64,000 nucleotides of DNA from a virus, in the IMG/VR virus record IMGVR_UViG_3300009177_000031, positions 24,310-88,309 of that record; one strand, 5' to 3'. Within the stretch, counting starts at the first letter, position 1. Every line of letters begins with the position of its first letter. The position numbers were made by a program, and so were the translations under genes. Shown piece after piece: positions 9,967-58,107 of the stretch. The notes beneath the pieces are model-generated. The model was given only the letters and a program-made list of their open reading frames with translations, had not been told where the DNA came from and searched no databases.

Positions 9967-9976
9967 TGTAGGGACG

Positions 9977-10016
9977 TAAAGCGAGTGAGCGTGCTGTTTG
10001 GCGCTCGCTTGTTTTG
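9977..10016 (+). terminator. G:U-rich stem-loop after MCP (terminator or processing site)
   Basis: GCGAGTGAGCGT...GCGCTCGCTTGT followed by TTT. Confidence 0.5.
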
Positions 10017-10052
10017 CTGCTTCTACACCCACTCATCAGAAGGAGATTGCAA

Positions 10053-35001: not shown

Positions 35002-36728
35002 CGGCAATCAAAGACGCAATCGATCTCATCACGCAGAAGTCAAACGGTCTCGTCACGACGGCGGATCAAATCGCGTCGTTGATGACGGATGGTGGCGCTG
35101 TTGCGATGGAGACGATCTACTCGCACAAGGAGCCGCGTGTTGCAGGCGCTGCGGCTTCAGCCGCGATCATCGGTCAGCCACTCTCGATGTGGCAGTTCGA
35201 GGGAACACCTCTGACTCACGGGGCGGTGCCGACGGTTTGGGCAAACCCAACGCGTGCAACGCTTGGTGGTTTTCAGCAAGCGAATCCTGGTGGCGGTCGT
35301 ACGAAGCTGATGCTCTCGCTGATCGCCGGTTGTCAGAACGGTGGCTACCTGATCATCGGTGATCGTTTGGGCCACATGGGCGGTCTCGATGGCACACTTA
35401 CCACTGCGCAAAACGTCAACGGTGGTTCGCCTGGCGCACCCACGCGCAACACAGGTGGTGTTGGCAATCTGTTGCTGATCGAAATCTACACAGCGGTTGG
35501 CGCTACAGCTACCACGATCACCGCAAACTACACGAACGATCAAGGAACCGCAGGTCAGGTGACGCAACCGATCGTGTTTGGTGGCGCCAGTCGTCAGGAA
35601 GCACAACGCGTGATGGTGATGTCGCTCGCCGCAGGCGACAAGGGTGTTCGCTCGGTCACGAGCGTCACGGTGCTCGCGACGACAGGCACCGCAGGTAACT
35701 TCGGCGTGACGCTGTTCCGACCGCTGATGTGCATTCCGTTTGCGAGCGCGACAGGCTGCGGTCACATCATCAACGCGCTCAATCACGCGATGTCGGTGCT
35801 GGACACGGATGCGTGCCTCAGCATGATCTTCGTTCCCACGGTAGCGGCATTGCCGATTACCGACATCGTCATGAACAACGTCGAAGTCGCTGGTACGCCA
35901 GGCACGACGACGGAGACGATTCACCAGTGGAAGGAGCTGCGCCTCGGTGGTGCTGCATACGCCACCGCATCGATGGCTGGTAAAGAGCTGTCGATGTGGC
36001 AAGCAGAAGGTTCGCCGAGCCATGGCGCAGCTCCGGGTGCATTTGCAAATCCGACCAACGCAACGGCCGGAAGCTTGATGCAAACCGATCCGGCTGGTGG
36101 CAAACAGAAGTGGCTCACGTCGCTGATGTTCCCTGGCGGCTACATCGGCTCATCGTGGATGTTGATGGATCGTCTGATGCACGCTGGTGGCTTCAGCGGT
36201 ATCGTCACGACAGCGCAAAACCTCAACGGTGGTTCGCCAGCGACGTTGACGCGGCACTATGCAGACAGTACCGGCGCTCTAGATGTCGGCAACCAGATCT
36301 TCATCGAGATCAACGCTGCGCTTGGTGCAACCGGAACAACGGTGACTGCGGTGTACGCAAACGAGAACGGCGTTTCGCACACGACGCAAGCTGTTACGAT
36401 TGGCGGCACCAGCTTCTTCAATCCAGGGCGTTGGATCCAACTACCGCTTGCCGCAGGCGACAGGGGCGTGCAGTCGGTGACAAGCGTAACGCTTGCAGGA
36501 ACCACAGGAACCGCAGGCGCGTTTAGCGTCGTGGTTGTTCACCCTCTGCTTCACCTTCCGGTTTCGCAAATGCAACCTGACTCGTGGCAAGGCGCAATCG
36601 ACACGCCTGGCAACATCGAGATCAAAACAGGTGCGTGTTTGTTTTGGTCGTGTTTGCAATCCGCAGGTGCGACGTCAGCTCTGCTCCCAGCACTACCGCT
36701 GGTTCAATTCTCCTTCGTGGATAAGTGA
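34998..36728 (+). CDS. Virion protein with two tandem ~280-aa paralogous domains
   Basis: Two copies of LSMWQ.EG.P.HGA.P...ANPT.AT.G, DRL.H.GG..G..TTAQ and LAAGD.GV.SV.SVT...TTGTAG. Confidence 0.8.
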   Translation: MTAIKDAIDLITQKSNGLVTTADQIASLMTDGGAVAMETIYSHKEPRVAGAAASAAIIGQPLSMWQFEGTPLTHGAVPTVWANPTRATLGGFQQANPGGGRTKLMLSLIAGCQNGGYLIIGDRLGHMGGLDGTLTTAQNVNGGSPGAPTRNTGGVGNLLLIEIYTAVGATATTITANYTNDQGTAGQVTQPIVFGGASRQEAQRVMVMSLAAGDKGVRSVTSVTVLATTGTAGNFGVTLFRPLMCIPFASATGCGHIINALNHAMSVLDTDACLSMIFVPTVAALPITDIVMNNVEVAGTPGTTTETIHQWKELRLGGAAYATASMAGKELSMWQAEGSPSHGAAPGAFANPTNATAGSLMQTDPAGGKQKWLTSLMFPGGYIGSSWMLMDRLMHAGGFSGIVTTAQNLNGGSPATLTRHYADSTGALDVGNQIFIEINAALGATGTTVTAVYANENGVSHTTQAVTIGGTSFFNPGRWIQLPLAAGDRGVQSVTSVTLAGTTGTAGAFSVVVVHPLLHLPVSQMQPDSWQGAIDTPGNIEIKTGACLFWSCLQSAGATSALLPALPLVQFSFVDK

Positions 36729-37384
36729 GGCGCCGATGTCTGTCTCAACCTACGCTGCGTTGCTGAACAAGCTTTTGAACCCTACGCAAGAGATCAAAGC
36801 GATTGCAGCTGCGACATCGCCAGCGCAGAGCACGCAAACGTGTCCGCTCGTCAGCGAGTGGATCACAGCTGGTCGCGGTCCTACGGTTGGTGTTGCGCCA
36901 GGTGCAGCTGCGATTCCAACAAATGCGACAGCTGGTGCGCTCGGTCAATCGAACAAGGCTGGTACCGAGCAACGCGCGTGGTTGAAGCGTTTCGACATCT
37001 CGTACGGTCAGAACACACCGGGCGTCGGTATGTTCTTGCTGGTCGATCGACTCGCTCACATGAGCGGTTTGAGCGGCATCGTTACGACTGCGCAAACGGT
37101 CGGCTTCCCTGCGCTGACGCGTTTTACGAGCGGTGCAGGCGTTTGGGCTGCAATCGAGTTCTACGTGGCGGTTGGCGCAACCGGTACGACGTTGACGATG
37201 TCGTACACCAACACGGTACCGACGGCTGGTCAGACATCGCAGCCGATTGCGTTTGGAGGCACCGGTCTGAACAACATCCGTCGCATTCTTCCGATCTCGC
37301 TCGCGAGCGGCGACACTGGCGTAACTGCGGTGGCGTCAGTGACGGTGCTCGCGACGACAGGCACCGCAGGTAACTTCGGCGTGA
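35667..37384 (+). repeat. 43-bp perfect direct repeat (35667-35709 and 37342-37384)
   Basis: ACGGTGCTCGCGACGACAGGCACCGCAGGTAACTTCGGCGTGA is identical in two paralogs. Confidence 0.9.
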
Positions 37385-37572
37385 ACCTGTTCAAGACGCT
37401 CGCTGCATGGCCTGCGGTCAGCGCGATTCCGTACTTGATGAGCGGACAGCCGTTGCCTTACTTCGGCATGATGCCGGCGATTCCTGACAACGCGTGTTTG
37501 CAATTCCTCTACATCGGCGGTTCCGGTTTGGGCAACACGAACGTCCAAGTCGTGGACTTCTTCGAGGACTAA
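36736..37572 (+). CDS. Third paralog of the same domain
   Basis: PTNAT.G, DRLAHMSGLSGIVTTAQ, LASGDTGV..V.SVTVLATTGTAGNFGV. Confidence 0.8.
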   Translation: MSVSTYAALLNKLLNPTQEIKAIAAATSPAQSTQTCPLVSEWITAGRGPTVGVAPGAAAIPTNATAGALGQSNKAGTEQRAWLKRFDISYGQNTPGVGMFLLVDRLAHMSGLSGIVTTAQTVGFPALTRFTSGAGVWAAIEFYVAVGATGTTLTMSYTNTVPTAGQTSQPIAFGGTGLNNIRRILPISLASGDTGVTAVASVTVLATTGTAGNFGVNLFKTLAAWPAVSAIPYLMSGQPLPYFGMMPAIPDNACLQFLYIGGSGLGNTNVQVVDFFED

Positions 37573-39087: not shown

Positions 39088-39137
39088 GGTGCAGATCTCG
39101 GTGCAGATCTCCAAGTGTCAGAGGCGTGTCGTAAGAC
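39088..39137 (+). promoter_or_regulatory. Upstream motif copy 1: (GGTGCAGATCTC)x2 + TGTCAGAGGCGTGTCGTA
   Basis: Intergenic, before the replication operon; shared with 57690-57751. Confidence 0.6.
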
Positions 39138-41478: not shown

Positions 41479-41665
41479 CTGGCGCTTTGTACAGCCTGGA
41501 CGAAACCAGGTTGCGGTGGTGATGCACGACACTGCGAACGAGGGTCGCATTTGGCTCGTGCCGTTGGACATCGTTTACCTCGATCATGAAGGTTTTCACG
41601 TGCGACTTCATCAGAAGCCAATGAGCCTGTTCATGCGCTGGCATTGGCGCAGGTGCGTGCGATGA
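41471..41665 (+). CDS. Hypothetical protein
   Basis: Fills the gap; ATGA overlap with the next gene. Confidence 0.45.
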   Translation: MASWRFVQPGRNQVAVVMHDTANEGRIWLVPLDIVYLDHEGFHVRLHQKPMSLFMRWHWRRCVR

Positions 41666-43098
41666 AGACGCGCGAGCGCAAAGAGCGCACGAAGCTGACG
41701 TACGACCACAGCTTCCAAGAACGCATCGTCCGCACGCTCTACCAGGATCCTGATTGGTGCATGCAGTTCGGCGTGTTCCATCTGACGCCGCAGCTGTTCG
41801 AGAACAACGTGCATTCGTGGTTCGTCGATCGCATCGTCGGCTACGCGAAGAAGTACGCGAGCGGTATCACGCGCGCTGCGCTGAAGATCGAAGCGAAGCA
41901 CGCCTACAATTCTGGTCGCCTGATCCGTCGACGCGACAAAGCGGTGGTGAACGCGCTCGTCGCGAAGATGCGCAAGCCAGTCACCGATCGCAGCTACATC
42001 AAGCGAGAGCTGTACCGGTTCGTCAAGACGCAGACGTTGAAGGACGTCATGCTGAACGACGCGACCGAGTTGGTGAAGAACAACGACGTCGACAAGTACG
42101 ACATCGCAATGCAGCGCGTGCTCGACATCCAGCCCCCGAGCGAGGGTGGGGTGGGGCACTTCATGGGCGACGATCGCAACGAGCGCTTCAAGCGACGTCG
42201 CGATTGGGTGCCTGACGGCATTGCGACAGGGCTCGAAGTCGACGGCTACATCAAAGCCGGTGGGCCACGTCGCAAGCAGCTCGCTGCGGTGGTTGCACCG
42301 CCGCACACCGGCAAGACGATGATGCTCTGCCACCTGGCGAAGCAAGCGGTGTTGCTGTCGCACAAACGCGTGCTATTTGTTTCGCTCGAAGAGAACGACG
42401 AGACGATCGAAGACCGTTTGGACTCCGCGTTCACCGGCATCAACATCAACGAGCTGGAGTCGCGCAAGAACTGTCGGAAGGTGCGCCGCTACTGGCGCAA
42501 GCTGCGCAAACGCTTTGGCCAAGAGATGTTGGTGGTCAAAGAGTTTCCGATGGGCGTCACGAAGGTGTCGCAGATCGAGCGGCACATCAAGATGCTCGAA
42601 CGGAAGGGCTTCTACCCGGACGTCGTGTTCATCGACTACGCTGGCTTGCTGCTACCTGACGGTGAGACCGCTGATGGTCGCTCGCGATCTGACGACAGCC
42701 GTTACGAGGAAGTCGGAAGCATCTACGTCGAGCTGCGCTCGATGGCGCAGCGGCTGAAGCTTCTCGTGTGGACGGCGCACCAAGGCAACCGTTCGTCGAT
42801 GGGCAAGAAGCTCGTGACGATGAAAGATCTCGCCGAGTCGTTCAAGCCAGCGATGCACTCGGACCTGTTGCTCGCGATCTGCCAGACGGAACAGGAACAG
42901 CTTCGCGAGAAAGCGCGCATCTACTCGATGAAGGTTCGTGGTGGTCGCGCGCACATGGAGTTCAACGTGAAGCTTGACTACGAATTGGTGAGGTGTATCA
43001 ACAGAGATTCCGGCCATGAACCACACCGAAGACCGAAGCTCAGATCCAAAGCTGTGGATGCACGACGATCATCGCGAGAGAGCCGAGCGGCTGCTTAG
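41662..43098 (+). CDS. DnaB/T4 gp41-like replicative helicase
   Basis: APPHTGKT Walker A, FVSLEE, VFIDY, WTAHQ.NR, K.R.G. Confidence 0.92.
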   Translation: MKTRERKERTKLTYDHSFQERIVRTLYQDPDWCMQFGVFHLTPQLFENNVHSWFVDRIVGYAKKYASGITRAALKIEAKHAYNSGRLIRRRDKAVVNALVAKMRKPVTDRSYIKRELYRFVKTQTLKDVMLNDATELVKNNDVDKYDIAMQRVLDIQPPSEGGVGHFMGDDRNERFKRRRDWVPDGIATGLEVDGYIKAGGPRRKQLAAVVAPPHTGKTMMLCHLAKQAVLLSHKRVLFVSLEENDETIEDRLDSAFTGININELESRKNCRKVRRYWRKLRKRFGQEMLVVKEFPMGVTKVSQIERHIKMLERKGFYPDVVFIDYAGLLLPDGETADGRSRSDDSRYEEVGSIYVELRSMAQRLKLLVWTAHQGNRSSMGKKLVTMKDLAESFKPAMHSDLLLAICQTEQEQLREKARIYSMKVRGGRAHMEFNVKLDYELVRCINRDSGHEPHRRPKLRSKAVDARRSSRESRAAA

Positions 43099-44153: not shown

Positions 44154-44733
44154 GGTGAAGACGTTCCTTGCTGGCAACCTTCACGCACTCGCAGCGTGGA
44201 TGTTCGAGCGTGAGGAGCGCGAAGAGTCGCGCGCAATGGAGGACATGCGGATCGAGCTGGCTGGAAAGAAGAAGGCGCTCGAAGCTGCGTACACGACGCT
44301 GAAGGATGCAGGCAAGGACACCGCCGATTACGGCTTGCTGCAAACGTACGTGCGCGAGGTGTCGCAATTCCATCGACAGTTCCTGATTCCGCTTGTCGGT
44401 GTCGTGACGCAGATCTTGGAGCAAGCGGACAAGATCGCCGATGAGGACGGCAAGGCGAAGCTCGCGCAGGTGATCAAGTTCGTGAAGGCGATCGAAGATC
44501 GCTCGAAGCACTACGAGAGCCAAGCGCTCGTAGAGAAGGCACGCAAGCAAGCTGAGGACGAGCTGAAGAGGATGACGGTGAAGACCGGTTTGAGCGGCGA
44601 GACCGGTGCGGTGAAGGTGAACATGACGACTGGCGAGCTTGCAGCTGGAACGCACGCGAGCCATTGCGCGAAGGCGCACGATCACTCGAAGCGCTGCGAC
44701 TGTCATCTCGCCAGCAACTATCCGCCGCCATGA
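44017..44733 (+). CDS. Coiled-coil hypothetical protein with C-terminal Cys/His cluster
   Basis: H..HC...H.H...C.CH C-terminus; ATGA coupling to primase. Confidence 0.65.
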   Translation: MTSHAQTKDSLTEETKRETAQWAPVDAYIKQTLESWEGKGAYTADEVKTFLAGNLHALAAWMFEREEREESRAMEDMRIELAGKKKALEAAYTTLKDAGKDTADYGLLQTYVREVSQFHRQFLIPLVGVVTQILEQADKIADEDGKAKLAQVIKFVKAIEDRSKHYESQALVEKARKQAEDELKRMTVKTGLSGETGAVKVNMTTGELAAGTHASHCAKAHDHSKRCDCHLASNYPPP

Positions 44734-45851
44734 ACCTCAACCTCCGCCGTCTTGAGAAGCGGTTCGATTTGCAAACGTACATCGAACAGTACGACTTCAA
44801 GATGGTCGGGGAGAACGCGGTGATGCACTGTCCGCAGTGCGAGCGCGACGACAAGCTGTACGTGCTGATGCAGGACAAGCGCGACGAGCGCGGAGAGACG
44901 AAGCCTCGCGGCACGTGGATCTGTTACTACTGCAACGATCAGGAAGAAGGTGGGGGCGCAGGGCGCACGTGTTTGTCGCTGATCGAATGGCTCGAAGACG
45001 TCGAATGGCTCGATGCGGTTCGACGACTCGCCGAAGGCGGCACCTCAGCTGACGCGGACTTCATCGGCGCGATGGAGAAGACGCTCGCCGAGCTGGATGA
45101 CGACGAAGACAAGGACGAGGCGCCAGTGCCGACGATCCAATTGCCGCGCGAGTTCATCCGCATCGACGAGCGTCGCTACCCGCCCTACGTCGCCGAGCGT
45201 GGCATCAGCGTCGATCGAGCGATGCGCTTTCGTTTGGGCTACTGCAAGAGCGGCTACTACGAGAACAGGCTCATCGCGCCGGTCTACTTCGAGCAACGCC
45301 TGGTTGGCTTTCAAGCGCGCTACATGAAGAAGAAGCCACCGGTGTGCACGGCGCACGAGCTACCGTGCTCGATCTGCGGTGGCGATGACGAGCACAAGCG
45401 GCTGAAGAAGACGAAGCACGCGAAGGGCGCGAAGATGTCGCGCGTGCTCTACAACTACGATGAGGCACGCGAAGCGAATCGGCTCGTGCTCGTGGAGTCA
45501 CCGTGGGCGGTGATCAAGCTTGGGCGATGCGCAGCTGGAACGTTCGGCAAGAACCTCAGCGCGTCTCAGCTAGAGCTGGTGATGAAGTCGGACGCGAAGG
45601 AAGTCGTCATCATTTGGGACCGCGATGCGGACCATGCGCCAGGGAAAGGCGGCTACGACAAGAGCGTGGCGCTCGCTGAGCGGCTAGCTCAGTTCGTTCG
45701 CGTGCGAGCTGTGAAGCTCGGTGCGAAGGTCGACATCGATGATCTCAGCACGCGTGAGATCGGCGAGCTGATCGCGCGAACCAAGGCGCTCGATGTAAAC
45801 GCTGCGTGGGCTGAGAAGGTCGCGCGCCGCGTTGGCTGGATCGAAGACTGA
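44730..45851 (+). CDS. DNA primase (DnaG-like, Zn finger + TOPRIM)
   Basis: CPQC...CYYC, ERGIS, RLIAP...GFQAR, LYNYD, LVES, WDRD. Confidence 0.9.
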   Translation: MNLNLRRLEKRFDLQTYIEQYDFKMVGENAVMHCPQCERDDKLYVLMQDKRDERGETKPRGTWICYYCNDQEEGGGAGRTCLSLIEWLEDVEWLDAVRRLAEGGTSADADFIGAMEKTLAELDDDEDKDEAPVPTIQLPREFIRIDERRYPPYVAERGISVDRAMRFRLGYCKSGYYENRLIAPVYFEQRLVGFQARYMKKKPPVCTAHELPCSICGGDDEHKRLKKTKHAKGAKMSRVLYNYDEAREANRLVLVESPWAVIKLGRCAAGTFGKNLSASQLELVMKSDAKEVVIIWDRDADHAPGKGGYDKSVALAERLAQFVRVRAVKLGAKVDIDDLSTREIGELIARTKALDVNAAWAEKVARRVGWIED

Positions 45852-45891
45852 AACGGCCGATTTCCAGCAAACGGCCGAGACAGTTGCGCCC

Positions 45892-45928
45892 AAGTTCCTG
45901 TTTCCACAGGGAAACTTTTTTCTTTTTT
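45892..45928 (+). terminator. Intrinsic terminator ending the replication operon
   Basis: TTCCTGT-TTCC-ACAGGGAA hairpin followed by CTTTTTTCTTTTTT; preceded by AAACGGCCGA x2. Confidence 0.65.
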
Positions 45929-45997
45929 CCTGGGATTCTGAAGCCGTATAGGGGACAGAACGCGATAAAACGGCAACCAAAACAAGGGATGGTTCAG

Positions 45998-46519
45998 ATG
46001 GTGAAGAAGACGAAGCGTGGGAAGCATACGCCGCAGCGCGAGCAAGCGGCGAACGAACAGAACGCAGCACGTCAGATCGAAGCGACGGTCGAACGTACGG
46101 AGCACTTCAACATGCTCCAAAAGAAGTTCGGACCGAAGGGTCCCAAGGTTGAGCCTGCACGCTTCAGCAAGGCAGGCGAACCGACCAAGCGCACGGTGGC
46201 GGAAGCGATCGAGCGGCTGCGCACCGAGCTGCAAATCGTGTACGGCAGCGATTACACGTTCGTCGTGATGGATGCGAACCAGCGAGTCATCGCGTCGCAT
46301 CGCAGCGGACTCAACCACGACACGTTCATCGCGTGCACGAACGACACGCTCGAACAGGCGAAGATCACGGACGCGATCGTGGACGAAATCATCGCGGAAG
46401 ACGACGAGACGCCACCCTGCGGCGCGTGCGGTGGCGAGCTGACGTCGCTCGGTACGCTCGGCAATCGCAAACACTATCGTTGCCGCAACTGCGGCGCTGA
46501 CCAATCCAAGGAGGGCTAG
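45998..46519 (+). CDS. Hypothetical protein with C-terminal Zn ribbon
   Basis: CGAC...LG.LG....RCRNCG. Confidence 0.65.
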   Translation: MVKKTKRGKHTPQREQAANEQNAARQIEATVERTEHFNMLQKKFGPKGPKVEPARFSKAGEPTKRTVAEAIERLRTELQIVYGSDYTFVVMDANQRVIASHRSGLNHDTFIACTNDTLEQAKITDAIVDEIIAEDDETPPCGACGGELTSLGTLGNRKHYRCRNCGADQSKEG

Positions 46520-46523
46520 GACC

Positions 46524-46721
46524 ATGGCGTACAAAATCATCCGTCACTTCTTCAACAGCAACCGCAAGGTCACGATCAAGACTGGCATCACGCTCGAAGA
46601 GGCGCAGGCCCATTGCAACGACCCGGAGACGTCGTCGTCGACGTGCACCAAGTCCGCAGGCAAGCGCCGCACGAAGCTGTACGGCAAGTGGTTCGACGGC
46701 TACACGGAGTGCAAGCGATGA
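46524..46721 (+). CDS. Small phage hypothetical protein
   Basis: YKI.R.F...I.TG.TLEEAQAHC.DPETSS...WFDGY. Confidence 0.7.
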   Translation: MAYKIIRHFFNSNRKVTIKTGITLEEAQAHCNDPETSSSTCTKSAGKRRTKLYGKWFDGYTECKR

Positions 46722-47143
46722 GCAACCTCAGCATCAGCATCGATCCTCGTCTCTGTCTGTCCTGCAACCAAACGCGCACGCAGGGCGACTTCATCAACGA
46801 CCGCGGCGCACCGATGGCTCACTGCATCTACTGCGAGAGCAAGCTAGGCATGCGGATCCGCATGTGGCAGGTGCAGATGCAGGTCATCACGACGCGCGAT
46901 GGTTGGACGTCCTCGCGTGGCACGCCGACGTTCTTCATCCTCGCGATGAATGCTGACCACGCGTGGGCGCAGGGCAAGAACGTCACCCTCGCTGCGGACT
47001 ACAACAGCGCTACGACGAAGGTGAAGCTGAGCGGCACGGTCGCAATCGCGAAGCCTGTCGCAAACGGCGAGTTCGGCGCGCTGTACGATCTCGTCGACGT
47101 CGATGGTGAAGGCTACAAATCGTTCGTGGAGGACATCGTATGA
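46718..47143 (+). CDS. Hypothetical protein with CxxC pairs
   Basis: CLSC...CIYC; ATGA coupling. Confidence 0.6.
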   Translation: MSNLSISIDPRLCLSCNQTRTQGDFINDRGAPMAHCIYCESKLGMRIRMWQVQMQVITTRDGWTSSRGTPTFFILAMNADHAWAQGKNVTLAADYNSATTKVKLSGTVAIAKPVANGEFGALYDLVDVDGEGYKSFVEDIV

Positions 47144-47340
47144 CGCCTATCGAGCCAAATGCGATGTCGCACTTCGCGGCGATTCAGGAAGTGCTGAAGC
47201 TCCACGGTAAGGAGTTCGTGCTGCGAGACTTCAAGCCGAACGAGCTACGCATCATGATCGAACGTTTGGCGAAGCGATCGATCCCTGACGTCGTAAACGA
47301 CGTTCTCAACAATCGCGCTTTAGCTTCTGAAAGGAGGTGA
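47140..47340 (+). CDS. Hypothetical protein
   Basis: GGAGG RBS, ATGA overlap. Confidence 0.55.
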   Translation: MTPIEPNAMSHFAAIQEVLKLHGKEFVLRDFKPNELRIMIERLAKRSIPDVVNDVLNNRALASERR

Positions 47341-47343
47341 AAC

Positions 47344-47586
47344 ATGGAAGACGAAGACATCGACCTAGCGGTGGCGTACCAAGAGGCGGTTGCGAAAGGC
47401 AACGAGCTGCGACGCACGCTGAACGCTGTGCTTCGGAATCGCAAACGCGTTCCGCCGCACAAGATGTACAAGTTCGAGGCGCTGGTCGCGAAGATTCGCG
47501 GCAAGATCGAGTACCACAGCGAGCTGATCGCGCAGCTGGAAGCGAGCATCATCGCCGAAGGTGGCGAGGTGGTTCCGCGAGCGTGA
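47344..47586 (+). CDS. Hypothetical protein
   Basis: AGGAGGT RBS. Confidence 0.65.
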   Translation: MEDEDIDLAVAYQEAVAKGNELRRTLNAVLRNRKRVPPHKMYKFEALVAKIRGKIEYHSELIAQLEASIIAEGGEVVPRA

Positions 47587-47594
47587 GGGCTAAA

Positions 47595-47882
47595 ATGAAC
47601 CTTCCATTCCACGGCAAACGCAAATGGACGAACCTGACGCCTGCACAGCAACGTGCGTTTGTGCGTGCGTTCAACGCTGGCAATGAATCATGTAGCGTCA
47701 TCCCTCGCAAGGGCTCGCATGACGAGCGCATGCTAGCAGGGCGCATCGGTTACAAGCTCAAGAGCAGAGAAGGCACGCTCTACGCGGTGATTCCGTTCTC
47801 GGTCTTTGCGAGGAACGGTAACAAATGCGTCTCGCATCCGCTGAGCTACACCACCACCGTTTACATTTCACCGTTTCGCTGA
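47595..47882 (+). CDS. Hypothetical protein
   Basis: GAGG RBS, 95 aa. Confidence 0.5.
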   Translation: MNLPFHGKRKWTNLTPAQQRAFVRAFNAGNESCSVIPRKGSHDERMLAGRIGYKLKSREGTLYAVIPFSVFARNGNKCVSHPLSYTTTVYISPFR

Positions 47883-47930
47883 AACGTAGCTAGATGGTGC
47901 CGAGCAATCGGCGCTATCAGGGTGCGCTTC
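47881..47930 (+). promoter_or_regulatory. Conserved long RNA hairpin, copy 1 (RNase III-site-like)
   Basis: 23-position stem with 3 mismatches, 4 G:U pairs and a GCAA loop; homologous to 49772-49828. Confidence 0.7.
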
Positions 47931-47966
47931 GCATCGACAACCAAATAGGGACAGAGGAGAAAGACC

Positions 47967-49331
47967 ATGTCGAAATTCGAGCTGAGCATCAACGTGAAGT
48001 ACCTCCCGGAGTGGGGCGTGTGGGAAGGCATCCGCGAGCTGATCCAGAACGGCAAGGATGCCGAGGTGGAGCACAACGCACCGCTGACCGTCGACTGGAA
48101 GAACGGCACGCTGCGCATCGAGAACGAAGGCGCGTTGCTGACGCGCGAAGCGCTCCTGTTCGGCACGACGAGCAAGGGCGGTCGCGCTGACCTGATCGGC
48201 AAGTTCGGCGAGGGTCTGAAGCTCGGCGTGCTCGCGCTGGTTCGCGCAGGACGCTCGGTGACGATCCGCAGCGGTGGCGAGGTGTGGGAGCCGACGATCG
48301 CTCGCAGCGAGAAGTACGACGCCGACGTGCTCGTGTTCGACATCAAGACTGGACGCGAAGAGAAGAAGCGCGTGCGCGTCGAGATCGACGGCGTGATCGA
48401 GAGCGAGTGGCTGGACTTCCGCAACCGCTTCCTGTTCCTCAAGGACAAGCGCGAGAGCAACAGGAAGCACATCGTGTCGACGTGGTACGGCGATCTGCTT
48501 CTCCACGAGCGCAACGCCGGCAAGCTGTACTGCAAAGGCATCTACGTTTGCGATGCGAACACGCGGTTCGGCTACAACTTCAAGGATGCCGAGCTGGATC
48601 GCGATCGGAAGATGATCGCGGACTACGACCGCCGCGCGAAGATGGGCTACATCCTCAACGAAGCGGCGAACATCGAGCCGACGAAGGTGCTCGATTCGTA
48701 CATCAGCATTGTGGAGTCGCCTGACAGCGAGGAAGGGAAGGGCATCAACGAGTACCGCCTCCCGGCGCCCAAGATCACCGCTGCGATCGTGAAGCGTTTC
48801 AAGGAGAAGCATGGCGACAACGCTGTGCCGGTCCGCTCGCTCGCCGAGTCGCAGGACGTCGAGCACTTCGGTGTGCGCGGCGTCGTCGTCTCCGAGGCGC
48901 TCGCTGCGATTCTGAAGAAGGATCTCGGCAACGCGGAGACCACCAAGAGCAAGTTCGCCAACTCGACGTTGCGCGAGTTCAGCTACGGCGATCTGACGCA
49001 CGACGAGAAGGCGGCGCTGTTCAACGCAATCGACAAGGTGAGCTGCGGAAACGCATCGCTCCTTGATGGCTCGAACGCGTACGACACGAAGCTGCGCAAG
49101 CGCATCGCAATCGTCGAGTTCCGCGATGCGAACCTCAACGGCCTCCACCACGGTGAGCGCATCGAGATCGCGCGCAAGATGCTCGCTGACGAGTTCGAGA
49201 CGCTTCGCGTGCTCGTGCACGAGCTGGCGCACGACGCTGGTAGCGATGGCGACAAGAGCCACGTAGCGCAAATCGAACGCACGTGGGCGAACATCGCTCG
49301 CTACCTCAGCGGCAAGGCGGTGCGCTCGTGA
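47967..49331 (+). CDS. GHKL (Hsp90/MORC/sacsin-type) ATPase fused to HExxH zincin-like domain
   Basis: IRELIQNGKDA (N box), NEG, IGKFGEGLK (G2 box), C-terminal LVHELAH. Confidence 0.8.
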   Translation: MSKFELSINVKYLPEWGVWEGIRELIQNGKDAEVEHNAPLTVDWKNGTLRIENEGALLTREALLFGTTSKGGRADLIGKFGEGLKLGVLALVRAGRSVTIRSGGEVWEPTIARSEKYDADVLVFDIKTGREEKKRVRVEIDGVIESEWLDFRNRFLFLKDKRESNRKHIVSTWYGDLLLHERNAGKLYCKGIYVCDANTRFGYNFKDAELDRDRKMIADYDRRAKMGYILNEAANIEPTKVLDSYISIVESPDSEEGKGINEYRLPAPKITAAIVKRFKEKHGDNAVPVRSLAESQDVEHFGVRGVVVSEALAAILKKDLGNAETTKSKFANSTLREFSYGDLTHDEKAALFNAIDKVSCGNASLLDGSNAYDTKLRKRIAIVEFRDANLNGLHHGERIEIARKMLADEFETLRVLVHELAHDAGSDGDKSHVAQIERTWANIARYLSGKAVRS

Positions 49332-49771
49332 AGATCCTCCACATCGAAGACGACGCGTTCCTACAGCGCGCTGTGAAGCGCACGCTCGAACGTGCGTTTG
49401 GCGAGCACACGGTGGTGGAGAGCGTGGCTGACGCACCGACGGCGATTCGCTACCTACAGGCAGCGCTCGCGACGTTCGGCTGCTTCCACTACGACCACAT
49501 CATCAGCGACTACAACCTCACCGAAGGCACCGGTGGTGACGTGCTCGCGTGGATCAAGAACACCACCGACGCGATGCTCAACGACTGGCAAACGGCGTTC
49601 GACGGCAAGTCCTCGCGTCAGGTGTTGCTCGAACGCTTCACGTTCCTCACGGCGAATCGCGATGCGCTCGCGCTGCACGATCGGTTCATCGAGAAGCCAA
49701 TCCGGCCTAGCACGCTGGCGAGGCTTCTGAGCACGAAGGGACCGCTGCGCATCACGAACGAGATCGGCTGA
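49328..49771 (+). CDS. Single-domain response regulator (receiver, CheY-like)
   Basis: ILHIEDD, IISDYNL (phospho-Asp), FLTA and EKP all intact; GTGA overlap with the GHKL gene. Confidence 0.85.
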   Translation: MKILHIEDDAFLQRAVKRTLERAFGEHTVVESVADAPTAIRYLQAALATFGCFHYDHIISDYNLTEGTGGDVLAWIKNTTDAMLNDWQTAFDGKSSRQVLLERFTFLTANRDALALHDRFIEKPIRPSTLARLLSTKGPLRITNEIG

Positions 49772-49828
49772 ACGAAACGCAGCTAGAGCGTCGCTAGGAA
49801 GCCTAGCGGCACTCAGGGTACGTTTCGT
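49772..49828 (+). promoter_or_regulatory. Conserved long RNA hairpin, copy 2
   Basis: 27-position stem with the same AGCUA/AGGGU internal mismatch motif; different but still paired upper stem. Confidence 0.7.
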
Positions 49829-49862
49829 ACCGAACCACAACCAAGGCATAGGGAGAACGCAA

Positions 49863-50126
49863 ATGAAGACCATCATCGCTCTGTTCATCACGATCGCGGC
49901 GTGCGGCGACAACACCAAGACGCAGTCGCTCGACGAGGCGCGCGCGACCATCAAGGCCGAGTGCGGCGACGCGCCGGTCGCGCCCGGCTACTCGGTGTCC
50001 TCCGAGACCATCAACGGCTTCGACCGCGTCTGCACGACGGTCGACGGCTGGAACCAGCTGGCGACCTGGTACAACGACGTCGAGACCTACACGGCGTGCG
50101 TGCAGGGCTTCGCCATCAACCACTAA
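49863..50126 (+). CDS. Small lipoprotein
   Basis: MK + hydrophobic stretch + lipobox IAA-C-GDN; three further Cys. Confidence 0.75.
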   Translation: MKTIIALFITIAACGDNTKTQSLDEARATIKAECGDAPVAPGYSVSSETINGFDRVCTTVDGWNQLATWYNDVETYTACVQGFAINH

Positions 50127-50156
50127 ACGATCGCAACGGAGAAGAAGGAGAAGGTC

Positions 50157-50660
50157 ATGAGCAATCACAATCAGCCCCACGAAACCATCACCGAGAACGT
50201 GCAGACCGTCGTCGACGGCGAGCGCAAGGTGCAGCCTGTTCTCGCGTTCCTCTGCGTTTACGAAATCAGCCGGCACTACGGCGGCGCTGAGGAAGGCGGT
50301 TGGTGGTACGACAGCTACACGTTCACCGGCGCTGCGTTCCCTTTCCAGGCGATGCAGGAGTTCGAGGCGCAGGTGCTCGAAGGCGACGACACTTCGAGCG
50401 GCACCGACGATCATCGTCAGATCTGGTACGACGAGGACACGAAGGAGTACAAGGCGTGGGTGCCGGTCGGTTTGCCGATCGTCACCGACGAGCCGACGCG
50501 CGTGCGTTTGGAGAGCGCGCGTGCGCACTTCATCGCGATGTTCGGCGAGCCTGACTCGCGCTACCGCTTCAGCGTCCGACCGCGCGGCGAAGACTTCGCG
50601 TATATCTACGAGCTTCGTCCTGGCGAGCGCGGTGAGCAACCGCGTCCGAGGTATTGCTGA
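50157..50660 (+). CDS. Phage hypothetical protein (YGGxEEGGWWYD motif)
   Basis: AAGGAG RBS; distinctive motif and RPRYC end. Confidence 0.7.
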   Translation: MSNHNQPHETITENVQTVVDGERKVQPVLAFLCVYEISRHYGGAEEGGWWYDSYTFTGAAFPFQAMQEFEAQVLEGDDTSSGTDDHRQIWYDEDTKEYKAWVPVGLPIVTDEPTRVRLESARAHFIAMFGEPDSRYRFSVRPRGEDFAYIYELRPGERGEQPRPRYC

Positions 50661-50661
50661 G

Positions 50662-51675
50662 ATGAGCGAGCTACCGCGAAGCGGCGTTCACGATCTCACC
50701 TGCAAATGGGTTTGCAAGAACCCACAACCTAGCTGCGAGCATTCGTGCTCGTTTTGCAATCAAGGAGTCGGTCACATGCGGTTCGAGAACATTCTGGAGT
50801 GGTACAGCGGCAAGGCGCGCGACACGATCGCGCAGTTCGTCATCCCGGCGCTCGTCGAGTGCGAGGAGTTGGGGTGCTGGAAGAAGGGCGTGTCGCGCTC
50901 GGTGAAGGGCGCGCTGAACAAACAGAACGTCGCGAAGAAGTGGGTCGACACCAAGGCGTGGAAGCCGCACGGTTCGCCTGACCTGGTGCCGACGCACGGC
51001 AACTTGCTGGAGAAGATCGAGGTGCCGTCGAAGAAGCCGCGCGAGACCGGCACGAGCGGTTGGTACCTGGCGCACGCGATGCGCTTCGGTAGCTTCGAGC
51101 TGGCGAAGTCGAACATCGCGCTCGCTGAGAAGCTCGAACACGTCGCCGAGGTGGCGCCGCGCGAGACCTACGAAGCGTGGGGCGTGGCGCTGCGGTGGGC
51201 GAAAGCGTTCGCGCCTATCGCCGAGCTGGTGAGGCTTCTCGACGCTAGTAGGCCGAAGCAAACCGTCGTGATGAAGACGCTGTCACCGACGGTGATGGAG
51301 AACCTCAGCAAGCACGTCGGCATCGACATGCGCTCGATCCAATCGCCACCGATGAAGGGTGAGTGGCGCGAAGAGACGATCGTCGTCGGTGGCAAGTCGA
51401 AGCAGGTGCGCGTTTGGCGCGTGCGCATCGAGTGGCCGGAAGGCACGCTGCACAATCGGTCGAAGTTCTTCCACAGCGGTGAGAACTGGCAGTGCCAAGC
51501 GTGCGGTCACGCGATTCGCAATCCGTTCAATTGGGTGCCGATCCTCGCGTACGGCGACAACACGCTCGGCACGAAATCGACTCCCTACTCGCTCATCGTC
51601 GGACGTGACTGCGCTGAGAAGCTGTTCGGCTGCGAAGTCGACGGCGACATGCTCATCGAGAACCGCGATCACTAA
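50662..51675 (+). CDS. Hypothetical protein with Cys clusters
   Basis: CQACGHAI...VGRDCA zinc-binding pattern; alternative start 50776. Confidence 0.65.
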   Translation: MSELPRSGVHDLTCKWVCKNPQPSCEHSCSFCNQGVGHMRFENILEWYSGKARDTIAQFVIPALVECEELGCWKKGVSRSVKGALNKQNVAKKWVDTKAWKPHGSPDLVPTHGNLLEKIEVPSKKPRETGTSGWYLAHAMRFGSFELAKSNIALAEKLEHVAEVAPRETYEAWGVALRWAKAFAPIAELVRLLDASRPKQTVVMKTLSPTVMENLSKHVGIDMRSIQSPPMKGEWREETIVVGGKSKQVRVWRVRIEWPEGTLHNRSKFFHSGENWQCQACGHAIRNPFNWVPILAYGDNTLGTKSTPYSLIVGRDCAEKLFGCEVDGDMLIENRDH

Positions 51676-51728
51676 ACTAGCTTTGCAAACAGCGACCAAA
51701 ACCTCATACGGAGAAGCAGGAGAAGACC

Positions 51729-52622
51729 ATGGAGATCATCACGAACGAGACCACCACCACGAACAGCAACCCGACCGCTGGCGGACCGCCTGGCACGCCG
51801 AAGGTGAACAAGAAGGTCCAGAAGCAGCTCGCCGAGCTGATCGCAAACACGCCGAGCCTCACCGCCGAGCCGGCGCCGAAGGTGTCGACGAAGAAGGCCA
51901 TGAAGTGGGCGCTGAAGAAGTTCGGTGCCGAGGGTGTCTACGCTGACGGCGAGCGCAGCGAGAAGCAGGCGAAGCGGTGGGCGGTGGAGCAGTACGTCGA
52001 GTACAAGGCGAGCAAGAAGGCGAAGCCGTCGAGCGATGGCGTCATCGACATGATCGCGAAGACGAACAAGGATGCGATCAAGGCGAACGACGCGATGGAG
52101 GCGCTCGCGAGCGGTGCGGTGAAGCGTAAGGCAGCGAAGGCGAAGAAGGACGAAGCCAAGGCGAAAGCCGAAGCGCAAACGCGCGACACCGAGATCAGCA
52201 CGGCGTTCACCGCGCTGAAGCTGTCGCTCGACGAACAGCTGAAGAACGCGACGCTCAACTTCATCAACGGTCCGGTGAAGGACGTGATGGACTCGTTCGT
52301 CAAGCTGTTCACGTCGCGCAGCTCGGACGGCGAGAGCGACGAGGCAGTGCTGGCGCTCGACGCGTGCAAGAAAGCGTTCGACGCGTGCGGTCTGATCCTC
52401 GCTGACGTCGAGACCAAGTCGAAGAAGAAGGCGAAGGTGAGCACCGAGAAGGCGCCACCTGAGACGGCGAAGGACGCGAAGCGCGAGCTGCGTCACGAGC
52501 TGCGCGAGTTCGTGAATAGCAAGACGAAGAAGCGCAAGCCGCTCACCGAGAAGCAGCGCGAGGCGAAGAACAAGAAGGACCGCGAGCGTCGCGCGGCGAA
52601 GTCGAAGAAGGGGGCGAAGTAA
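51729..52622 (+). CDS. Lys/Ala-rich coiled-coil protein
   Basis: AGGAG RBS, 297 aa, very basic C-terminus. Confidence 0.75.
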   Translation: MEIITNETTTTNSNPTAGGPPGTPKVNKKVQKQLAELIANTPSLTAEPAPKVSTKKAMKWALKKFGAEGVYADGERSEKQAKRWAVEQYVEYKASKKAKPSSDGVIDMIAKTNKDAIKANDAMEALASGAVKRKAAKAKKDEAKAKAEAQTRDTEISTAFTALKLSLDEQLKNATLNFINGPVKDVMDSFVKLFTSRSSDGESDEAVLALDACKKAFDACGLILADVETKSKKKAKVSTEKAPPETAKDAKRELRHELREFVNSKTKKRKPLTEKQREAKNKKDRERRAAKSKKGAK

Positions 52623-52624
52623 TC

Positions 52625-52864
52625 ATGACGACGACGTTCATCATCGTGTACGAGGATCGCGAGTACGGAGAGATTCACGCTGAGCGTTTGTTGTCCAAAG
52701 CTGATGTTCTGAACCGCATCTCTGGACTCGTCGACGAAGACGGTGTCGATGTCGACGACCTTGAGCTGTACGAAGCCGTGAAGGTTGCGTTCGTGGTCGA
52801 AACCGTCGCGACGGAGATCAAGACGCAGCCGAAGGTCAAACCGAAGAAGAAGGCGAAGAAGTAG
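52625..52864 (+). CDS. Hypothetical protein
   Basis: 79 aa ORF in tight array. Confidence 0.6.
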   Translation: MTTTFIIVYEDREYGEIHAERLLSKADVLNRISGLVDEDGVDVDDLELYEAVKVAFVVETVATEIKTQPKVKPKKKAKK

Positions 52865-52893
52865 CTCTCACAATCAAGGCGAAGGAGTAGAAG

Positions 52894-53388
52894 ATGGTGG
52901 AAGCGAAAGCGCCGCGGACCACGCACGAGCTGGTGTGCGTCGGTCTGCGGCTAACAGACAAGAAGAAGCTCGTCCCGGTCTTCAACGAGATCGTGGACGG
53001 TAGGCGCGGCAAGGTAGAGCTGTCGTGGGACGCGCTGAAGGCGCACACCGGCAACGTCTACCAAATCGAAGCAGAGACGTGGGAGGAAGGTGGCTCCCAC
53101 GTCATCTTCGTTCCGAAGGGCGGTCGTTTGCCGTGGCTGCGGTTGTGGCCCAACGCGGAGGACCGCGCGCTGTGGGAAGCCGCAGCTGACACCACGAAGG
53201 CAAACCAGGCGCGCGAGAAGCTCCAACAGAACGCAGAGAAACAGCGCGAGCTGGTGAAGCTCACCGAACCGCTCGCGGTGATCTTCCGCGGTCTCGCGTG
53301 GGGCAATCGCACGGCGTTCCTGATCCACGTCCAAGAGCTGATCCTCAGACACCCAACGGCACAAAAGAAAGGCGCAGACGATGAGTAA
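52894..53388 (+). CDS. Hypothetical protein
   Basis: AAGGAG RBS. Confidence 0.7.
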   Translation: MVEAKAPRTTHELVCVGLRLTDKKKLVPVFNEIVDGRRGKVELSWDALKAHTGNVYQIEAETWEEGGSHVIFVPKGGRLPWLRLWPNAEDRALWEAAADTTKANQAREKLQQNAEKQRELVKLTEPLAVIFRGLAWGNRTAFLIHVQELILRHPTAQKKGADDE

Positions 53389-57689: not shown

Positions 57690-57751
57690 GCAGATCTCCC
57701 CTCGAAAAACAGGGCAGATCTACCTCGAACGTCAGAGGCATGTCGTATGTA
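57690..57751 (+). promoter_or_regulatory. Upstream motif copy 2: GCAGATCT x2 + GTCAGAGGCATGTCGTA
   Basis: 16/17 identity to 39117-39133; intergenic. Confidence 0.6.
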
Positions 57752-57825: not shown

Positions 57826-58107
57826 GTGACTACGATCGAACGCACGCGTGAGGACTCGATGCTGCTAGCCAACGGCATCATCTTCACGATCAAAGAACTG
57901 CACGACAACAACGTGCACTACTTCAACCAGAAGCGCGCTGATGCGATGCGACGCTTCTGTCAGCCTGAGATCGCGGCGTTCTCGATGCAGCTGCTAGAGC
58001 TGTCGTTTGGGCTCGCAGCGCTCGCGGTGCACGCTGCGAAGCTGCAAGAGGCAGCTGAGAGCGACGAGTACGCGAAGAAGTTCTGGTCGAGCACGACGAT
58101 CAACTAG
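57826..58107 (+). CDS. Hypothetical protein
   Basis: AAGGAG RBS, GTG start. Confidence 0.6.
   Translation: MTTIERTREDSMLLANGIIFTIKELHDNNVHYFNQKRADAMRRFCQPEIAAFSMQLLELSFGLAALAVHAAKLQEAAESDEYAKKFWSSTTIN

Follow-up and report, generated by a model that had tools for sequence, protein, structure and literature searches.

A pair of stable intergenic hairpins was found in an uncultured soil phage, IMG/VR virus record IMGVR_UViG_3300009177_000031, whose 88,309-bp contig is estimated to be 75% complete. The window analyzed here is the last 64 kb of that contig (64,000 nucleotides), and positions are those of the window unless given otherwise. The two hairpins lie on the + strand in direct orientation and bracket a two-gene operon (47967-49771). 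Comparison of the two sequences indicates that the hairpin fold is selected and that its lower part is conserved in sequence as well. Going beyond the structure itself, we lean tentatively towards a reading in which the hairpins are intercistronic double-stranded RNA (dsRNA) signals of the phage mRNA, at which host RNase III would cut or by which the mRNA would be stabilised; we regard this as quite possible, if somewhat short of probable.

Structure of the two hairpins and selection on their pairing

The 5' end of copy 1 falls within the TGA at 47880-47882, and copy 2 directly follows the TGA at 49769-49771; between the hairpin and the next start codon there are 36 nt and 34 nt, respectively (Table 1). 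Neither copy is bulged, and the mismatches are single and symmetric. Both contain the block AGCUAGA/UCAGGGU, in which a G.G and an A.A mismatch lie around a C-G and a U.G pair. Folded as + strand RNA, copy 1 reached -30.4 kcal/mol (z -3.8) and copy 2 -34.3 kcal/mol (z -4.0), and in either case 0 of 200 shuffles was as good. In a hairpin scan of the contig both copies were among the 16 strongest, with scores of 35 and 41 compared with a top score of 43.

The sequences that flank the variable upper stem are particular to these two sites. Exact matches to the 5' motif GAAACGYAGCTAGA were obtained only at 47881 and 49774, the other 18 of the 20 matches needing 3 mismatches (8.4 expected by chance), and exact matches to the 3' motif TCAGGGTRCGYTTCG only at 47917 and 49813, the other 14 of the 16 matches needing 2-3 mismatches. 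The paired signature AGCTAG..CAGGGT occurred twice in forward orientation across the 88,309-bp contig, and neither in reverse orientation nor in a reversed-pattern control. Downstream of the hairpins, ATAGGGA was found on either strand of the contig only in the two hairpin leaders, 15 and 22 nt from the ATG, while two of the three occurrences of ACAACCAA on the contig + strand are in these leaders. As a specific signal ACAACCAA was discarded, since similar CA-rich leaders precede other genes of the contig and are also present in G001, the nearest complete relative described below. In a second soil run the contig over copy 2 was identical, so that no population variation was detected there; one low-support joint in this run, from 46701 to 49927 (20-nt side, 1 contig, likeness limit 80), does not lie at the hairpins.

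Pairing statistics were calculated from the alignment of the two copies, which comprises 24 pairs, with partners slid by 1-3 columns as control. The copies align column for column over their whole length, upper stems included. Sixteen of the 24 pairs are invariant, four are changed on both sides and still paired (U-A/G-C, G-C/C-G, C-G/G-C and G-C/U-A), one is changed on one side, and three are mismatched in one copy. Paired cells amounted to 93.5%, compared with 29-42% when the partners were slid. In a simulation in which the observed 7 + 7 arm substitutions were placed at random stem positions, as many pairs were kept with P = 1.7e-4 when starting from copy 1 and in 0 of 200,000 trials when starting from copy 2. 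The divergence is distributed unevenly, with differences at 3 of 28 columns for the lower stem and mismatch block and at 11 of 20 for the upper stem (Fisher p = 0.0013), which fits a lower part that is recognised and an upper part that is purely structural.

The 3' arm of both copies can also enter a second fold. A 6-bp hairpin, GGURCG-YUU-CGYAYC, built from the lower 3' arm and downstream bases, joins the best fold of both copies when the 5' arm lacks its first ~15 nt (for copy 1, the refold was tested with 47878-47895 removed). Two pairs of the small hairpin differ between the copies, G-C to A-U by a double change and G-U to G-C by a single one. In the long helix the purine at column 49 faces U in copy 1 (U.G) and C in copy 2 (C.A); its change is therefore compensated in the small hairpin and not in the long helix. 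By a rough count, the probability of all six small-hairpin pairs surviving by chance would be about 0.03. The Shine-Dalgarno sequence and the start codon are left free by both the long and the small fold. When the 3' arms were exchanged between the copies in silico, columns 9-49 became Watson-Crick and the folds improved by 5.5 kcal/mol in sum. An actual exchange of arms was discarded as an explanation, since a single position is informative and one mutation per copy from a Watson-Crick ancestor explains the pattern equally well.

Much of this had been anticipated by a first-pass annotation made from the sequence. Exact motif matches restricted to the two sites agree with its description of shared 5' and 3' sequences, folding confirmed the unbulged hairpins of 23 and 27 positions with common G-G and A-A mismatches, and the coordinates agree with copies that begin at a stop codon and are followed by ACAACCAA..ATAGGGA and a start. 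The alternative fold of the 3' arm with its compensatory G-C to A-U change was likewise recovered, at -7.0 and -7.6 kcal/mol. The upper stems, which it had taken to differ and yet to pair, do pair; they are not unrelated, as they align column for column with 4 compensatory and 4 invariant pairs. Its full 181-amino acid (aa) open reading frame (ORF) ending at copy 1 (47337-47882) had to be shortened: codon-position GC supports coding in this frame only from ~47600, and the coding ORF is that of 96 aa at 47592-47882.

Table 1. Positions of the hairpins, their leaders, the alternative folds and neighbouring genes in the window.
Feature	Position	Strand	Description
DnaB-like helicase	41644-43098		replication module
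Primase	44664-45851		replication module
Upstream ORF, 96 aa	47592..47882	+	no family; ATG 47592; TGA 47880-47882 overlaps first pairs of copy 1
Hairpin copy 1	47881..47930	+	23 stacked positions, GCAA loop; upper stem 11 bp; lower stem with one A.C
Alternative 6-bp hairpin, copy 1	47921..47935	+	GGUGCG-CUU-CGCAUC; -7.0 kcal/mol; 3' lower arm and downstream bases
Leader of copy 1	47937..47966	+	ACAACCAA 47937-47944; ATAGGGA 47945-47951; Shine-Dalgarno GAGGAG 47954-47959; ATG 47967
First bracketed gene, 454 aa	47967..49331	+	phrog_6077 / PF25856; phrog_6077 E 8.4e-57
Second bracketed gene, 147 aa	49328..49771	+	receiver-domain-like; Response_reg E 5.1e-6, 27.1 bits, below the 30.2-bit cut-off
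Hairpin copy 2	49772..49828	+	27 stacked positions, AAG loop; two C.A mismatches
Alternative 6-bp hairpin, copy 2	49817..49831	+	GGUACG-UUU-CGUACC; -7.6 kcal/mol
Leader of copy 2	49837..49862	+	ACAACCAA 49837-49844; ATAGGGA 49848-49854, overlapping Shine-Dalgarno GGGAG; ATG 49863
Gene after copy 2, 87 aa	49863..50126	+	lipoprotein-like N-terminus (signal sequence and Cys, by eye)

Searches for further copies and comparison with relatives

Searches with several methods returned the two copies and no credible third one. Rfam gave 0 matches in the 64-kb window at gathering score and, at E up to 10, four matches between 47700 and 50000, all of them chance-level and away from the element. An exact-pattern scan of IMG/VR yielded 0 stretches. 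A covariance model (R1) was built from the two copies, which it scores at 72.3 bits (copy 1) and 85.9 bits (copy 2); in the window it detected only these and their reverse strands, the next + strand match being a generic hairpin in a coding repeat at 37300 with 18.6 bits. R1 matched 0 of 4 relative records, and the matches obtained on 75 loci (470 kb; 3 matches, E 0.16-0.62) and on 80 loci (558 kb; 1 match, E 0.89) were not credible. With a loose pattern allowing 2 mismatches, five relative records gave no more matches than the reversed-pattern control. The inner signature had at least 120 matches in bacterial and archaeal genomes, and among the matches listed none folds like the element; the extra CGY prefix was present in 4 of 120 among the matches listed, as chance predicts. 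In INPHARED, blastn with both copies gave no match apart from one 33-nt chance match (E 0.9), and the 5-kb region gave none. The records covered leave out the contigs of the closest protein homologs, which are 77%, 69% and 66% identical (P0002, P0003 and P0004). Judged from these sequence searches, the element is confined to one phage lineage. The first-pass annotation had proposed a covariance-model search of the genome, related phages and Rfam, and had stated that the element would fall if neither homologs nor covariation appeared and the sites showed no processing ends or structure; the model search recovered the two copies only and no homolog was found in the records named above, while covariation between the copies is present.

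Relatives of the phage were accessible through its proteins. In IMG/VR the single 454-aa protein found nothing and a profile found 46 loci; a metagenome scan gave 8 loci, among which the contig of the 66% homolog was absent. The nearest complete relative, G001, is 118,719 bp long, with a major head protein 81% identical and a 454-aa protein homolog 54% identical, and a scan with the neighbouring 167-aa protein again gave G001 as the closest record. In G001 the counterpart of the first bracketed gene lies closer behind the primase, and both the receiver gene and the four small ORFs upstream are missing; the receiver gene is absent from both relatives examined (L049 and L050). The hairpin motifs were found neither in G001 nor in the contigs of the 64-67% homologs (L049 and L051). 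G001 has an intergenic two-copy module of its own, unrelated to the hairpins and 98% identical over 64 nt (L050 11485-11560 and 11965-12055; G001:C1:43434-43987, minus). The module includes a short terminator-like hairpin with TTTT behind it, and its two copies lie on either side of a small lipoprotein-like gene that comes just after the first-gene homolog. Since the gene content differs from that of G001, and G001 has its own module, the neighbourhood is variable and paired intergenic modules recur, which hints that these genomes repeatedly use such modules to frame cassettes.

Possible roles of the hairpins in the phage transcript

In the reading that we tentatively favour, the hairpins would be cis-acting structures in a long polycistronic phage mRNA, and the double-strand-specific RNase III of the host would recognise the two-turn helix, with the conserved G.G/A.A block guiding or limiting the cut. 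If both copies were cut, the bicistron 47967-49771 would become a message of its own. Were the 3' side cut, a protective hairpin would stay at the 3' end of the upstream RNA, and the new 5' end of the downstream RNA could refold into GGURCG-YUU-CGYAYC, which would protect that end; release of the bicistron with a small 5' hairpin would explain the covariation in the small hairpin. Even uncleaved, the helix would block exonucleases that work 3'-to-5'. An excerpt of PMC1540722 gives about two helical turns (roughly 20 bp or more) as the span of bacterial RNase III substrates, a length that the 23 and 27 unbulged positions reach. According to the same excerpt, internal loops or bulges in RNase III substrates can limit cleavage to one phosphodiester and thus leave a protective 3' hairpin, and in T7 irregularities can limit the cut to one strand, leaving a 3' hairpin (PMC1540722). 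Conserved single G.G and A.A mismatches are present here together with the A.C/C.A mismatches, and these might act in the manner of the internal loops of T7. Geometry, position, the missing U-tract and the conserved irregular block fit the descriptions of RNase III substrates, and we infer RNA rather than DNA as the active form, RNase III as the reader, and the effect of cleavage.

A second two-copy intergenic motif, GCAGATCT..GTCAGAGGCRTGTCGTA, was observed on the + strand at 39095-39133 and 57700-57747. Its 17-mer is exact only at these two sites (0.36 expected at 3 or fewer mismatches), which lie in the two larger gaps, before the helicase gene and before the gene block at 57826. Promoters are a possible reading of the two sites, which would then delimit a single long transcription unit with the hairpins inside it. 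With essentially all genes on the + strand and this motif at ~39.1 and ~57.7 kb, the hairpins may lie inside such a unit.

Compared with known systems, the hairpins resemble the RNase III signals of T7 (R1.1 and relatives), which are likewise intercistronic hairpins of about two turns in polycistronic mRNA, organized into an upper stem, an irregular block and a lower stem. T7 RNase III sites share sequence around the internal loop. They differ from the present hairpins, which show no sequence similarity to them and no Rfam match, comprise only two sites at which cleavage is a prediction, and carry single symmetric G.G and A.A mismatches instead of an asymmetric internal loop. The SAS and ESAS of cluster K mycobacteriophages are similar in combining a purine-rich ATAGG motif before starts with an upstream inverted repeat of variable centre. 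The SAS sits 3-8 nt from the start codon. In an excerpt of PMC3203893, the SAS is a 13-bp motif, GGGATAGGAGCCC, of 11-19 copies per genome that is tied to translation start sites; the arms of the ESAS are 17 bp with a spacer of 4-13 bp, departures from the repeat do not support RNA pairing, DNA-binding sites are favoured by the authors, and the function of both SAS and ESAS is given as unknown (PMC3203893). Here, by contrast, only ATAGGGA is common, in 2 copies at 15 and 22 nt from the ATG, and the whole 50-57 nt are paired with compensatory departures, so that the element belongs to neither the SAS nor the ESAS. Intercistronic processing or stability hairpins are a long-known kind; the sequence form found here is new, and the gain is incremental.

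Several observations weigh against the RNase III or stability reading. With only two copies and no homolog, the covariation amounts to one pairwise comparison, and a shuffle control reached the observed compensatory count in 94 of 500 shuffles; few distinct shuffles are possible with two rows, which weakens this control, and our own simulation was therefore run. Columns 9-49 change from U.G to C.A, which weakens the long helix of copy 2. An RNase III gene was found in 0 of 2 records, the contig and the complete relative, and the enzyme would therefore have to be that of the host. A survey of the regions upstream of first-gene homologs at 52 loci revealed no common feature and the motif in none; a single hairpin of -22 kcal/mol or lower within 150 nt upstream was present in 11 of the 52 loci, at varying distances. 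Of the runs on record, two hold the stretch, none of them as RNA. The two strands also give a mixed picture. Copy 1 folds worse on the minus strand (-21.9 kcal/mol, z -1.0) than on the sense strand, while copy 2, whose two C.A mismatches become G.U on the minus strand, folds better there (-39.0 kcal/mol, z -4.9, versus -34.3 kcal/mol). Strand asymmetry is thus inconsistent between the copies. The argument of the first-pass annotation that G:U pairs imply RNA holds in part: both copies retain the G.U pairs at columns 13-45 and 20-38 on the sense strand, but the better minus-strand fold of copy 2 counters it. This leaves room for a DNA-level or antisense role; a sense RNA is favoured.

Among other explanations, the hairpins might be a protein-binding operator or a translation-coupled switch acting on the downstream cistrons, which we consider somewhat unlikely. 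As an operator, the lower stem and the G.G/A.A block would be read by a phage or host RNA-binding protein that co-regulates two downstream cistrons, in line with the conservation of this part next to a varying upper stem (Fisher p = 0.0013) and with the similar spacing of 36 and 34 nt from hairpin to start. A block of 7+7 nt conserved in two copies is, however, weak evidence for sequence-specific recognition, and no candidate RNA-binding protein was identified in the contig protein scans. As a switch, a ribosome terminating on the overlapping stop codon would melt the lower stem and the 3' arm would flip into the small hairpin, so that downstream expression or decay would be coupled to upstream translation. 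The stop codons that overlap or abut the 5' arm agree with this, as do the small hairpin, which with its compensatory change is the best fold after removal of ~15 nt of the 5' arm, and the column 49 change, which weakens the long helix and is compensated in the small one, as expected if both folds matter. On/off logic is not obvious, because neither fold covers the Shine-Dalgarno sequence or the start codon. In its furthest form, a two-state RNA device that senses upstream translation and represents an unnamed class of phage cis-regulator, this idea appears distinctly unlikely; if true, only untranslated copies would show the full G.G/A.A helix to a nuclease or dedicated protein, and the operon of ATPase-like and receiver-like genes and the next gene would be tied to ribosome traffic. 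That the hairpins are instead the boundary of a mobile cassette, the module serving as DNA homology for gene swapping with the hairpin as passenger or secondary regulatory part, is an unlikely reading suggested by the PeSLs of T4-like myoviruses. These, according to an excerpt of PMC4122927, are motifs composed of promoter and terminator through which indels arise in the hyperplastic regions of T4-like phages. Like PeSLs, the present copies are repeated intergenic stem-loop modules flanking variable genes in a myovirus. Their similarity extends no further than the two intergenic regions, each reaching from the stop codon to the ribosome-binding site, which flank the cassette in direct orientation; the gene content differs from that of G001 (without the receiver gene and the four small ORFs), and G001 has its own two-copy module around a small lipoprotein-like gene. 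Unlike PeSLs, they have no promoter-like site beside either copy and no U-tract terminator, and number two where a dispersed family would be expected. The copies share ~82% identity, and their compensatory changes suggest that selection acts on the fold and not on homology; moreover, the first bracketed gene is ancestral to the group and is in the same module in G001. As to indels, gene content around the copies differs from G001, and no relative with an empty or single-copy site was found.

Transcription offers a further alternative, an atypical terminator or attenuator or a nut/put-like antitermination site, at which the polymerase would be paused, stopped or modified without a U-tract. Two-copy cis-acting RNA sites are known in lambdoid phages (nutL/nutR and putL/putR) and count in its favour, as do the position of very stable GC-rich hairpins directly after stop codons and their rank as two of the three top-scoring among the 16 contig hairpins. 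We nevertheless rate it as very unlikely. The tails CATCGAC and TACCGAA (CAUCGAC and UACCGAA in the RNA) have no U-tract, which rules out an intrinsic (Rho-independent) terminator; of the 15 terminator-like sites in 45000-53000 none is at a hairpin, the same region has 0 sigma-70 promoter-like sites, so that a short-range promoter before the copies was not detected, and Rfam gave no match. The phage does have a canonical intrinsic terminator, a GC-rich stem followed by TTGTTTTG, at 9976-10017 directly after the major head protein gene, from which it follows that host polymerase reads ordinary terminators. Two further candidates were rejected: a T7-like promoter start in ATAGGGAGA, as the motif occurs only twice, and a SECIS or UGA read-through, as the frames continue for no more than 20 and 4 codons. 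A search of 2 records for a single-subunit RNA polymerase gave none, but control genomes were equally silent, so this result is uninformative. Finally, the palindromes could act as DNA, forming hairpins or cruciforms for a recombinase, a transposase (attC-like or IS200/IS605-like) or the replication machinery beside the helicase-primase genes, which seems highly improbable. In integron attC sites, an imperfect hairpin marks each cassette boundary, all in direct orientation; its base and its unpaired bases are conserved, and its paired centre is variable. The two copies resemble this architecture in all these features and also lie in direct orientation around a cassette. The minus-strand fold of copy 2 is moreover the better one, and swapping the 3' arms makes columns 9-49 Watson-Crick, a summed gain of 5.5 kcal/mol. 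The stem bases do not fit the attC core RYYYAAC/GTTRRRY (compared by eye), nor are core motifs of IS200-IS605 ends seen by eye, and neither an integrase nor a Y1 transposase nor TnpB was found in four Pfam/PHROG scans of the ORFs of the contig, itself an estimated 75% complete. The single 'trans' position is explained equally by one mutation per copy plus compensation in the small hairpin, and the two G.U pairs conserved on the sense strand would be A.C on the other.

Gene context of the hairpin pair

The contig has a GC content of 59.6%, and its + strand holds essentially all genes. It is that of a myovirus, in which genes for portal, head protease, major head protein, tail sheath and baseplate precede a replication module with helicase and primase, and the hairpin pair sits shortly after this module. 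The 96-aa ORF upstream of copy 1 had no Pfam match better than E 0.038. For the 454-aa protein encoded by the first bracketed gene, PF25856 is the precomputed assignment, and PF02518 is given for one relative among 120 listed. By eye, its N-terminal ExxxNxxDA and GxxGxG motifs look GHKL-ATPase-like, and an HExxH is present at the C-terminus; a local Pfam search gave a weak SprT-like match (E 0.072), and a PDB sequence search with this protein gave no match. Among 8000 candidates scored, 642 relatives were obtained at E<=0.001, some in very large phage contigs. Because the GTG start of the 147-aa gene overlaps the stop of the 454-aa gene, the two are regarded as a coupled bicistron. The operon 47967-49771 joins a widespread phrog_6077/PF25856 protein with a CheY-like receiver protein and could encode a phage-borne signalling pair. 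The 87-aa protein encoded after copy 2 had a weak match to the Rz-like spanin phrog_812 (E 7.8e-4).

Two features further away on the contig were observed in addition. Just upstream of the window (G000:C1:18591-23208), beside the portal region, lie two very large ORFs with NUDIX and 2H-phosphoesterase (LigT-like) domains and an S-adenosylmethionine-lyase-like domain, for which a role in anti-defence or RNA repair after injection is possible. At 35300-37400, past the tail genes, a coding segment is present in three tandem diverged copies spaced ~810-880 nt, 63-79% identical over blocks of 70-100 nt and with a strong hairpin (37301-37354) inside one of them; these are probably paralogous fibre or receptor-binding modules.

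Taken together, the two hairpins are a clear example of an RNA helix under selection: the mismatch signature is conserved, a small hairpin competes with the long fold, and the position is exactly intercistronic. They bracket an unusual gene pair, in which a protein of a widespread phage family stands beside a receiver-domain-like protein, and they provide a ready substrate for studying how uncultured soil phages cut or stabilise long transcripts.

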